Source of the DNA: a virus
Taxonomy: Duplodnaviria; Caudoviricetes
Direction: 5' to 3' (one strand)
DNA: 64,000 bases
Virus record (IMG/VR): IMGVR_UViG_3300005544_000020
Span: 172,091-236,090 of that record
The translations under genes were made by a program, and so were the position numbers. The notes beneath the pieces were generated by a model, which was given only the letters and a program-made list of their open reading frames with translations, made no database searches and was not told the DNA's origin. This document shows, piece after piece, positions 61,809 to 64,000 of this stretch (position 1 is the first letter of the stretch; each line of letters opens with the position of its first letter).

Positions 61809-62512
61809 GGACCATCCGCTACCAACTGGGCGCCGAGGAACTGATCGAGCTGGGCGGCGACAGCAAGGTCATCCTGAAGAACCGGAAGCCGTTTCTGGCT
61901 GGCCGGGTCGTGAAGCTCGGGATTCCGGAAGAGAACATCCTGGATACCTTGGCCATGGTCGGGAAGTTCGTGGCGGAGAGGCTCTCTTTGGCTCTCGACA
62001 CCCTTTCCCAGATCCTGAATGTGCCTCTGGGTGTCATTTCGCAGAGCGTGGACGTGGCGAGCCTGGTCATCTCGGATCTGCTCAAGAAGGTTCCCTCTAT
62101 CGGGAATCTTCTCGCGGAGATCCTTCTTCTGGGCGGAGCCTTGATGAAGTTCGGGCTTTCGATCCCAGGGCTCGTTCTTGGAGGCCTTGCCTGCCTGCTG
62201 GCCGGCATCGCCCAGGCCATGGACGGCCGTCCGGACACCCAGGCCCAGATCGACGCCGCCAAGGGGTCGATTCTGAACCAGGCTTCCGAGGATCTGAAGG
62301 ATCGGGTCGAAAAAATTATCGGAACCATCGGGATTTCAGAGGACAACCTGGCCCCCGACGTCACCGTCAGCGGCCAGCCTTTGACGACGCCCGCAGGCAC
62401 TTCTCTTTCGGGTGCGCCCCCTCCCCCCGTGCCCGGACTGAGCAATGCCTTGGCAGTCGGAGTCCCAGTCGTAGGCGCCGTGGCCTTGGTCACGGCGTTG
62501 GCCATGAAATGA
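61805..62512 (+). CDS. membrane protein, possible virion internal-membrane component
   Basis: Central hydrophobic helices and a C-terminal TM anchor. Confidence 0.65.
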   Translation: MRTIRYQLGAEELIELGGDSKVILKNRKPFLAGRVVKLGIPEENILDTLAMVGKFVAERLSLALDTLSQILNVPLGVISQSVDVASLVISDLLKKVPSIGNLLAEILLLGGALMKFGLSIPGLVLGGLACLLAGIAQAMDGRPDTQAQIDAAKGSILNQASEDLKDRVEKIIGTIGISEDNLAPDVTVSGQPLTTPAGTSLSGAPPPPVPGLSNALAVGVPVVGAVALVTALAMK

Positions 62513-62572
62513 TGGGGAGAAATTCGCCTAGGTCGGGCCTGTCGTCCGGCCGGCGTTTTTAAGGAGAACGAC

Positions 62573-63298
62573 ATGAAGAGCAAGAAGAAGAGCGCCGGCA
62601 AGGGCGACGGCAATGTCACCGTCGATCTGGGTGAGAAGCATCACCAGAAGATCGAGCGGATGATCGAGTCGAAGCTCGCCACCGCTGGCATGTCCGGCGC
62701 TCCGTCGAGCCTCGCGGCGAAGCTCGGCAGCAAGTCCGGCGCCTCGGGCCGTCCCGGGATGTTCGGCGGGGGCTACAAGCCCTGGTATTCGCGGTTCGGC
62801 AAGCCCTGGCTGGGTCAGGGTGAGGCCACGATGACGGCCTTCGCCGCCCCCGGGCGTCGGTTCAACATCATTCCGATCGAAGTCCAGACCGTGAAGACGG
62901 CGGACGTGCTGACCGGGATGGCGCTGGGCCTGATCGGTAACCGGGCCCTCGTCCGGTTGGTGCCGAAGCTCTGGGCCACGGCCGCGAGCAACGCGCTGAT
63001 CAATGAAGGCATCGCCTTCGCCGTGGGCCTCGTGCCCATGCTGTTCCAGCGCAAGGCGATGACGGTCGGTCTGGCGCTCCCCGGCGCGGTGTACTTCGCC
63101 GGAACGCTGGTCGACATGCTGTACAACGCGGTCGGCATGCCGGCGAAGCCCGCCAACATGTCCGGCGGCGCGTCGGCGACCCCGGCGGATCCGAATCAGG
63201 GCGCACGGGCGCGCCTGGCTCAGATTCAGCAGCGGATTAACACTCCGCAGGCGTCCCAGCAGCGCTCCCTTCCGCGGGTGATGGCGGTAGCGCAGTAG
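62573..63298 (+). CDS. G/A-rich multi-TM membrane protein, possible virion component
   Basis: Basic N-terminus, about three hydrophobic segments; ends TAG TAG. Confidence 0.7.
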   Translation: MKSKKKSAGKGDGNVTVDLGEKHHQKIERMIESKLATAGMSGAPSSLAAKLGSKSGASGRPGMFGGGYKPWYSRFGKPWLGQGEATMTAFAAPGRRFNIIPIEVQTVKTADVLTGMALGLIGNRALVRLVPKLWATAASNALINEGIAFAVGLVPMLFQRKAMTVGLALPGAVYFAGTLVDMLYNAVGMPAKPANMSGGASATPADPNQGARARLAQIQQRINTPQASQQRSLPRVMAVAQ

Positions 63299-63310
63299 TA
63301 GCTAGACCCC

Positions 63311-63490
63311 GCGCGGAGGGGGGTGCGTCCGTTGTCCTGCTTGGGGGGGGAAGCGTCGGGCGGACGCTTTCGAAGCAGGGTGGCGTGACGCCCCCCCTGG
63401 CGCGCACCGAAGTAGGGTAGTTGCAGTTGGTGTAAGAAGTACCGGCGGGACGATAAAACCTACCGGAGGCGACCCAGTCTCGAAAGGAGA
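63311..63490 (+). ncRNA. candidate structured RNA / 5' leader of the capsid-like gene
   Basis: Nested stems GCGCG..GGGGGG-T-GCGTC/GACGC-CCCCCC..CGCGC, CCTGCTT/AAGCAGG, AAGCGTC/GACGCTT, CCG-GTAGG/CCTAC-CGG, and GTCTC/GAGAC over the SD. Confidence 0.55.
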
Positions 63491-63495
63491 CAACC

Positions 63496-64000
63496 ATGTT
63501 CAGGCCCCCTGAGTATGCGGCGCTGATCAACCCGATTGCCTGCAACGCGTTCGCGATGCGGTGCGAGGGCCGGAATGACCTCGAGCAGACGCTCGTCGTC
63601 GATACCGGTCTGACCCCGGACGGCACGCCGATCAACGCGGTGGTTCTCGATGCCACCACGCAGTCGCAGGTCTGCGATGCGAAGCTGTTCGTGTGCCCGT
63701 TCATCAAGCTGCTGACCCCGGTCAGCCCGGACTACGCCGGAGCCTTCTTCCTGGCGCGGTTCACCTTCTCGATCGACGGTGAGAAGGTCGTGAACGATTC
63801 GGCGGTCGAGATGCACCTCGTGTGCCCGGCCTGCCAGATCGCGGTCCAGCCCTCGCCGGATTCGTCCGACGCCACGCTGGTCCGCCTCCTCCTCGGCCAG
63901 AGCGAGGACGAGGTCCTGGGCTGCTGCCAGATGTTCTTCCTCCCCAACGGCACGCGCATCGTCGCGACGCTGTCGGGGATCCCGACGGGCGCGGGGGCGA
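63496..64000 (+). CDS. beta-rich, Cys-rich protein, candidate vertical jelly-roll capsid protein (truncated by window edge)
   Basis: Translated by hand: MFRPPEY...FTFSIDGEKVVNDSAVEMHL...MFFLPNGTRIVATLSG; AAGGAG RBS; missed by the ORF track. Confidence 0.45.
   Translation, partial: MFRPPEYAALINPIACNAFAMRCEGRNDLEQTLVVDTGLTPDGTPINAVVLDATTQSQVCDAKLFVCPFIKLLTPVSPDYAGAFFLARFTFSIDGEKVVNDSAVEMHLVCPACQIAVQPSPDSSDATLVRLLLGQSEDEVLGCCQMFFLPNGTRIVATLSGIPTGAGA

Follow-up and report, generated by a model that had tools for sequence, protein, structure and literature searches.

A conserved RNA rod ahead of a jelly-roll protein gene in a clade of large uncultivated phages

The locus described here raises the question of what a gap of almost 200 nt between two phage genes encodes, and what the product might do for the gene behind it. 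The window that was analysed is a stretch of 64,000 nt, the final 64 kb of a 236,090-bp IMG/VR virus record that is linear according to IMG/VR, ~90% complete according to CheckV and has a G+C content of ~58%. A first-pass annotation, drawn from the letters of the window, had proposed that nearly the whole gap pairs into a switch-like RNA that hides the ribosome-binding site (RBS) of a capsid-like gene. The coordinates that it gave for the gap are right, as they fit exactly between the two flanking genes, referred to here as up and dn:

62573..63298, + strand: up, the upstream gene, 241 aa, with a Lys-rich N-terminus and hydrophobic segments (from the list of open reading frames)
63299-63495, + strand: the gap, 197 nt between the end of up (63298) and the start of dn (63496)
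63496..63999, + strand: dn, the downstream gene, first 168 codons, cut by the contig end; ~240 aa in relatives

Relatives for comparison came from one scan of metagenomes, in which 16 loci (L005-L020) were obtained, their sources being peat, soil and sediment; L011 repeats L010 and L015 ends at up, and the distinct loci number 15. Every distinct locus whose contig runs past up keeps the same order of up, a gap of 179-257 nt and dn. Judged by identities among relatives of 53-95% for dn and 35-85% for up, dn is conserved much better than up. Homologues of up number 59 in public protein data, and scans of IMG/VR and GTDB genomes with up, dn and their alignments found no relatives besides this record. 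A search of a phage database with 62573-64000 (blastn, distant mode) gave no match, and the continuation of dn was not found at the other end of the record.

The two proteins say little by family membership. The up protein has no Pfam or PHROG match in family scans, and dn together with ten more distant relatives has no Pfam match and no informative PHROG match. The N-terminus of dn is invariant (MFRPPEYAALINPIACNAFAMRCEGR), the first 26 residues being the same among relatives, and an AlphaFold (AF2) model from a 62-sequence alignment gives a beta-sandwich of the jelly-roll type with a pLDDT of 82.9. Foldseek matches to this model are weak (TM ≤ 0.35), and the best match of an exhaustive structural comparison (VIA) has a Z of 7.0. 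Capsid proteins appear in that comparison with Z of 6.9 (HHIV-2), 6.7 (SPV1) and 6.2 (HCIV-1), and P23-77 VP17 is also among the single-jelly-roll matches; they are tied with nucleoplasmin, tail-fibre tips and cement proteins. From the description of dn as capsid-like, the predicted jelly-roll fold stands, while the structure matches are weak and mixed (Z ≤ 7.0), the fold is a generic one, and a capsid role for dn is possible but unproven. In L005, the second gene after dn matches PHROGs for virion structural, tail-fibre and tail-spike proteins, and the Pfam models Terminase_6N and Phage_capsid have no match in the 236-kb record, a result that is not conclusive.

A conserved rod on the sense strand

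The 5' half of the gap folds into one long hairpin, called D1 below, which begins 11 nt after the up stop codon in the window and is built as follows:

63310..63404, + strand: D1, an unbranched 95-nt RNA rod of 38-39 bp (from folding, covariance model and covariation)
63310-14 with 63400-04, + strand: stem P1, the outer stem (CGCGC...)
63317-23 with 63392-98, + strand: stem P2, a G-run paired with a C-run
63325-42 with 63373-91, + strand: stem P3, the variable stem
63350-57 with 63363-70, + strand: stem P4, the 8-bp apical stem, closed by an apical loop at 63358-62
63343..63349, + strand: a G-rich bulge, the unpaired 5' side of an asymmetric internal loop below P4, ~8 bp from the tip

D1 has a G+C content of 76% and a minimum free energy (MFE) of -65.2 kcal/mol (z = -5.28), which none of 200 dinucleotide shuffles beat, and its region is the most stable of ~9,440 genome windows of 100 nt (-66.9 kcal/mol against a mean of -29.6 and an sd of 6.6 kcal/mol). 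The 3' half of the gap with the first dn codons (63405-63510, 106 nt) folds no better than shuffles (z = -0.07), and it is for this reason that the whole 212 nt reach a z of only -1.48. The proposal that nearly the whole gap pairs is therefore borne out in its 5' half and not in its 3' half.

The same architecture of P1, P2, P3, asymmetric internal loop and P4 was obtained in each of the 15 gaps when they were folded separately. The hairpin domains extracted from the relatives hold 34-52 pairs, and the rod dominates the predicted ensembles in all loci, with mean pair probabilities of 0.78-0.97. Trimmed to the rod, D1 is 92-121 nt long over the 15 loci (92-95 nt in ten of them), and it begins 0-42 nt after the up stop codon, within 16 nt in 12 of the 15. 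A first covariance model (CM), built from the five closest sequences, recovered a full-length, sense-strand D1 from every locus, with E ≤ 0.05 in 12. A second model matched 14 of the 15 on the + strand with E between 2e-14 and 0.025, its best antisense match having E = 0.3; the scores by strand are 87 bits for + and 20 bits for -. One locus, L019, is weak in these searches (E of 0.66 to 4.8). A scan of the 236-kb genome returned only the element itself, so that D1 is single-copy.

Covariation points the same way. In the CM alignment of 14 sequences, 92.7% of the pair cells form standard pairs, against 70.3 ± 1.3% in shuffles, a level that none of 500 shuffles reached; 35 of the 38 pairs have changed on both sides, against 19.4 ± 2.3 in the control, and the covariation score is 0.635 against 0.238 in the control. 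These counts overstate the number of independent events, because the 14 sequences amount to about seven clades and the D1 alignment was fitted to the structure of the model. When the 3' partner was slid by 1-3 columns, only 44-53% of the cells were paired and 10-17 pairs had changes on both sides, and a separate count on 15 rows agrees with the result from 14 sequences. The sequences of P3 and P4 differ wholly between clades and keep their pairing nonetheless. P1 and P2, on the other hand, are conserved as sequence, beyond pairing alone.

The first-pass annotation was thus right that the gap holds a structured RNA, for which an Rfam search was run without a match and the covariation check across relatives is strong. 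The Rfam 15 search of 62000-64000 at E ≤ 10 gave only chance-level matches over the gap (PtaRNA1 at 18 bits, with a gathering threshold of 47, and mir-658 at 20.6 bits, with a threshold of 82), and the gaps of fourteen related loci were without any match at E ≤ 1. All the short complements that the annotation had named are present where it placed them: GCGTCCG (63325-31) with CGGACGC (63361-67), GACGC (63387-91), AAGCGTC with GACGCTT, GTAGG with CCTAC, and GTCTC-GAAAG-GAGAC over AAGGAG. The switch that it had built on them did not survive the comparison with relatives, since the alternative pairing lacks conservation and the rod prevails on thermodynamic grounds. Read by eye, GCGUCCG and CGGACGC occur exactly only in the window and L008, occur with one mismatch in L005 and are absent elsewhere; in the window the mutually exclusive pairing is possible because two stems happen to share the word GCGUC.

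Several observations assign D1 to the sense strand. In 14 of the 15 loci the fold of the + strand exceeds that of the - strand in stability by 6-21 kcal/mol, an advantage that comes from G-U pairs, and selection therefore acts on the + strand transcript. The gap has stops in all three + frames in 13 of the 15 loci, L019 and L020 each keeping one frame open, and it is not coding. An antisense ORF of 63 aa (63302-63493) was dropped as a candidate, being conserved only among near-identical relatives.

The columns of the bulge are invariant or near-invariant in plain MAFFT alignments as well as in CM alignments. It is 7-8 nt long and unpaired in the MFE structure of every locus, and the opposite side of the loop has only 2-5 nt. 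The bulge reads GGGGGGG(G) in the window and its three closest relatives (the form of the window's clade being GGGGGGGG), GGGGGAGG in 10 of the 11 remaining loci and GGGGGAAGG in L020, the general form being GGGGGRGG. A reading of the internal loop as a K-turn was rejected, as the CM alignment shows G instead of the A in the clade of the window. Two other candidates were dropped: base-pairing between the bulge and codons 4-5 of dn (Pro-Pro), which is without covariation and is always possible because these codons are CCNCCN, and a small ORF behind the SD-like bulge, for which an AUG stands at the right distance only in the clade of L007, L010 and L013.

The linker, the second hairpin and the start of dn

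Between D1 and the start codon of dn the window has three further parts:

63405..63441, + strand: the linker, C-poor and single-stranded, with 4 AGU copies in the window
63442..63466, + strand: hairpin H2, CCGGCGGG / CCUACCGG with an A-rich loop, weakened in the window
63477..63491, + strand: the SD hairpin GUCUC-GAAAG-GAGAC, which overlaps the Shine-Dalgarno (SD) sequence AAGGAG at 63484-63489; lineage-specific

No other part of the gap is as poor in G+C as the linker, which spans 23-48 nt from D1 to the following hairpin and over all loci contains 13% C. The triplet AGT occurs 49 times in the linkers against 13.5 ± 3.4 in shuffles, a 3.6-fold enrichment, the largest count in 2000 shuffles being 27. 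In the form VAGTDD (VAGUDD in the RNA) it is found in all 15 linkers with a spacing of mostly 6-8 nt. The copies number 1-5 per locus, 3-5 in most and 1-2 in L013, L014, L007 and L019. The last of them, a GTAGAAGT-like motif, stands 2-5 nt before H2 in most loci, and AAGU occurs also in the H2 loop of L014, L016, L017 and L018. Motif scans found no comparable enrichment of the linker motif or of AGU clusters ahead of other genes of the 236-kb genome, and RNase E-type RNWUU sites are not enriched in the linker (8 observed, 11 expected).

At the position of H2, folds of the single loci show an 8-11-bp GC-rich hairpin in all relatives, with a sequence that differs by clade; the 3' domain as a whole has a modest mean folding z of -1.55 over the loci. 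The second domain that had been proposed here, CCG-GTAGG with CCTAC-CGG, is specific to the window, and in its closest relatives (L005, L006 and L008) the 3' arm lies in a local hairpin, CCGGCGGG...CCCGYCGG. The SD itself is strong (AAGGAGA) and conserved 5-8 nt before the AUG. The idea that it is hidden fails across the relatives: the predicted probability that the SD core is unpaired runs from 0.0 to 0.66 among 14 loci, and the GUCUC/GAGAC hairpin is found only in the window, in L005 and, altered, in L008. The SD is placed in a loop in L007, L012 and L013, and the SD region is without a local hairpin in L016 and L018.

Two further arrangements bear on how the parts belong together. In relatives dn is followed by a hairpin, GGGGAGGG...CCCUCCCC, that has no further copy in those loci and none in this genome, and with D1 before it and this hairpin behind it the dn cistron is bracketed by two stable hairpins with G motifs. 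L009 and L010 carry a second, tandem copy of dn, preceded by a simple hairpin instead of D1. In L010 this hairpin is followed by an AGU linker, H2 and SD, and in L009 the second copy is without AGU repeats, linker or H2. As these second copies are without D1, D1 is not indispensable for the expression of dn; the duplications indicate rather that D1 belongs to the junction of up and dn, and that linker, H2 and SD travel with dn.

Candidate functions of the leader

The gap is best read as encoding a gene-specific RNA on the sense strand, a leader or intercistronic RNA that runs into dn and consists of D1, the linker, H2, and the SD with its AUG. A cis-acting role is the most economical reading of such a conserved gap RNA. 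For D1 itself we tentatively favour an intercistronic element for processing and stability, of the kind found in the early mRNA of phage T7. The presumed mechanism would begin with up and dn on one transcript, in which a double-strand-specific nuclease of the RNase III type may cut the irregular duplex, or the duplex may instead block exonucleases. In either case the messages of up and dn would be separated, with the mature dn mRNA starting within D1 or directly behind it. Its 5' end would consist of linker and H2, and the G-rich post-dn hairpin seen in relatives would cap its 3' end, an arrangement by which the very conserved and presumably abundant dn protein might be made in excess over its neighbours.

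The RNase III sites between the cistrons of T7 early mRNA (R1.1 type) and the sib and N-leader sites of phage lambda are the known systems to which this compares. D1 is, like them, an irregular sense-strand hairpin in an intercistronic gap of a phage operon, with a duplex of more than two helical turns and an asymmetric internal loop, placed after a stop codon and before the next RBS. Unlike them, it has no sequence or Rfam relationship to those sites, is about twice as long, is very GC-rich, with features that are antideterminants in E. coli, and has a sequence-conserved bulge of G7-8 followed by AGU repeats; its cleavage is only predicted. A bacterial RNase III substrate is a duplex of at least 22 bp (two turns) with an internal loop, internal loops restrict cleavage to one strand, and GC pairs at the positions of the proximal box act as antideterminants in E. 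coli (PMC3867540). D1 exceeds the 22 bp with its 38-39 pairs and has an internal loop whose asymmetry (7 nt facing 2-5 nt) is conserved, but by the E. coli rule it may be a poor substrate because of its 76% G+C. The conserved bulge, the sequences of P1 and P2 and the AGU repeats are unneeded for nuclease processing. That model leaves bulge and repeats without a role, and these two are probably where a protein or the ribosome binds.

A less probable account divides the gap between two transcripts: D1 would be a factor-independent terminator without a U-tract or the hairpin at the 3' end of the up message, the AGU/GTAGAAGT-type linker would be the promoter of dn, and H2 would be the 5' stabilising hairpin of a separate dn transcript. 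Intrinsic terminators without a U-tract have been reported for high-GC bacteria, and, like intrinsic (Rho-independent) terminators in general, D1 is a GC-rich hairpin directly downstream of a gene, 0-42 nt after the up stop in every locus. The low GC content of the linker, the GTAGAAGT-like motif just before H2, and the joint duplication of linker, H2 and SD with dn behind a simple hairpin in L010 speak for this account. Against this, D1 is followed by no U-run in any of the 15 loci and the terminator scan is silent at D1 on the + strand, while the same phages carry a canonical hairpin and U-run just upstream of up. That structure (62531-62560, with UUUUU, ~20 nt ahead of the up start codon and 0.8 kb upstream of D1) is conserved in sequence in at least eight relatives and shows that ordinary intrinsic terminators are in use there. 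The stem of D1 has 38 bp, where terminators have 7-12 bp, and a rod of this size with a conserved bulge, conserved length and conserved internal-loop sequence goes far beyond what termination needs. As a single-copy structure in 236 kb, D1 is also hard to regard as a generic terminator or promoter element. No sigma-70-like promoter was found in the gap, and the linker motif does not recur in the other intergenic regions of the 236-kb genome as a phage late promoter would. The strong asymmetry between the strands of the linker (13% C) fits single-stranded RNA better than a site in duplex DNA. The idea of a generic phage promoter in the linker was dropped, since motif scans show no copies ahead of other genes.

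The features that processing leaves unexplained are those on which an operator reading draws, in which the AGU repeats, with or without the G bulge, would bind a putative oligomeric RNA-binding protein, possibly phage-encoded and possibly dn or up, with D1 as a rigid scaffold. We consider this rather unlikely, and the same holds for its proposed logic, likened to TRAP/HutP with their spaced NAG triplets or to autoregulation by phage coat or scaffold proteins, by which the protein would set dn translation; the reading is compatible with processing, and the two are not exclusive. TRAP and HutP bind spaced NAG triplets in leader RNAs of Bacillus, and the linker resembles their sites in having NAG-type triplets (NAG-U) spaced closely and fairly evenly along an unstructured leader segment beside hairpins; it differs in having 1-5 repeats, periods of 6-8 nt rather than 5-7 nt, and an extra conserved U. 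The 3.6-fold enrichment of AGT in a C-poor, unstructured linker with its preferred spacing, the AAGU in the H2 loop of four loci, the specificity of the motif to dn, and the bulge, P1 and P2 being kept as sequence and not as pairs only all speak for an operator. Set against these are the four loci with only 1-2 repeats, the irregular spacing, and the second dn copy of L009 without repeats. Improbable, on our estimate, is a conformational switch, perhaps coupled to up translation, in which the C-run pairs with G-run 1 or the bulge and the end of up pairs with the 5' strand of D1. RNAalifold on a plain sequence alignment does join bulge and C-run; in 7 of the 15 loci the final 60 nt of up form the best duplex with the D1 5' strand among 34 control windows; and with extended context another fold is favoured by 2-4 kcal/mol in 3 of the 15, D1 being kept in the other 12. 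By a rough hand estimate, however, the rod is ~30 kcal/mol better than the bulge-to-C-run pairing and it dominates the ensembles, it forms by simple zipping during transcription, and the signal from the end of up is absent in six loci and may follow from a conserved C-terminal peptide. The bulge-to-C-run pairing is possible in all loci but joins homopolymer runs without covariation, and the switch would have no visible output, as SD masking is not conserved and neither is the alternative pair proposed at first. An independent or trans-acting small RNA, for example a decoy for a host factor that binds dsRNA or G-rich RNA or an SD mimic that titrates 30S subunits, seems about as improbable, and for an independent ncRNA the analysis gave no positive support. 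D1 is very stable, conserved and single-copy, and its exposed purine bulge is complementary to the anti-SD (CCUCC), a pairing that the A/G variation preserves, yet the 0-42 nt after the up stop (≤16 nt in 12 of 15) leave no room for a promoter of its own, it is without its own terminator, and its position and orientation with respect to up and dn never change. Least probable is an element at the DNA level, a cruciform, origin, packaging or recombination site. The end of the contig is 0.7 kb away, dn is also where several related contigs stop, and in L010 the similarity between the C-runs of D1 and the post-dn hairpin coincides with the boundary of the tandem dn duplication; but only the sense strand folds well (through G-U pairs), bulge and linker are asymmetric, and breaks of the assembly within the best-conserved gene account better for where the contigs end.

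Novelty and meaning

The kind of element to which the leader belongs is known, that of structured phage leader or intercistronic RNAs; the architecture, in which AGU repeats follow a long rod that bears a G bulge, is new, and the D1 motif is probably undescribed. A large survey of candidate structured RNAs mined from IMG/VR intergenic regions required at least three distinct IMG/VR 3.0 regions (PMC10690425). Its motifs are like D1 in being covarying intergenic motifs consistently upstream of one phage gene family (PMC10690425), and D1 probably falls outside that catalogue because scans place a single IMG/VR record in this clade. More speculatively, and on balance rather improbably, the leader could stand for a new class of phage RNA operator, in which the rod would display an SD-like GGGGGRGG bulge beside an AGU array and recruit a ring-shaped or oligomeric protein (possibly dn), the 30S subunit, or both.

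What the locus offers is a well-supported RNA structure that is absent from the family libraries and is tied to the best-conserved gene of a clade of ~240-kb uncultivated phages from peat, soil and sediment. As a defined object of 95 nt with a bulge and a repeat array, it can be tested directly for nuclease cleavage, protein binding and effects on expression. If D1 is only a processing or stability hairpin, then a commonplace type of element has here taken an unusually elaborate shape. The element also marks the jelly-roll protein dn as specially regulated and so bears on what these virions are built from, and if the operator reading were true, it would point to autoregulation of the main structural protein in a clade of large uncultivated viruses of soil and sediment whose capsid may be of another type than HK97.

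A conserved hairpin before the upstream gene

Besides D1, the 95-nt hairpin rod between the 241-aa upstream gene (up) and the conserved jelly-roll gene (dn), a second conserved RNA element is found immediately 5' of the up start codon:

Window 62531-62572: terminator-like hairpin before up

It has the form of a canonical terminator-like hairpin, GGUCGGGCC-UGUCG-(U/C)CCG(G/A)CC followed by GGC(G/A)(C)UUUUU, whose U-run leads directly into the Shine-Dalgarno sequence (GAGGAG/AAGGAG) and AUG of up. The same hairpin lies 5' of up in the related loci L005, L006, L007, L009, L010, L012 and L018, and partly in L016. Because its sequence as well as its pairing is conserved across phages whose up proteins are less than 50% identical, the comparison points less to a plain terminator than to an attenuator or operator under regulation.

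At the other end of the gene, the last codons of up (GCGCUCCCUUCCGCG, window 63262-63276) and the 5' strand of D1 (63312-63326) show 80% complementarity, and in 7 of the 15 loci the up tail forms the best duplex with that strand out of 34 control windows. This complementarity could reflect a translation-sensitive alternative pairing, or it could be a by-product of the conserved C-terminal peptide of up.

A hairpin after the jelly-roll gene and its tandem copy

In the window the region after dn falls past the contig end. In eight relatives a hairpin of the form GGGGAGGG(CCC)-loop-(GGG)CCCUCCCC, with no U-run, immediately follows the dn stop codon:

L005:4633-4660, hairpin after dn
L006:2573-2598, hairpin after dn
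L008:1487-1515, hairpin after dn
L009:4715-4742, hairpin after dn
L010:4548-4573, hairpin after dn
L016:4654-4679, hairpin after dn
L018:4708-4733, hairpin after dn
L019:4641-4658, hairpin after dn

Among loci with a readable region it is missing only from L012 and L014. Its sequence is almost the same in L006 as in the distant L018. The G motif of the D1 bulge recurs in this hairpin, which has no other copy in the related loci or the 236-kb genome. Two loci carry a second, tandem copy of dn, beginning ~840 nt after the first:

L009:4799-5023, tandem dn copy
L010:4670-4747, tandem dn copy

The left boundary of the L010 duplication lies inside the C-run common to D1 and the hairpin after dn. 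This record and many related contigs end inside dn, probably because assemblies break there, dn being the gene that is best conserved (or duplicated).

Other features of the record and the virion type

A motif scan also found GGGGAGGACTTGAACCTCC at genome 169830-169857, 2.2 kb ahead of the window start; its resemblance to a tRNA T-arm makes a tRNA gene probable there.

Across the whole record (236,090 bp) there were no matches to Pfam Terminase_6N or Phage_capsid (HK97), and the jelly-roll protein is the best-conserved gene product of the structural module. Both observations would fit a virus other than a typical tailed phage; however, a tail-fibre/tail-spike-like gene lies two genes 3' of dn in L005.
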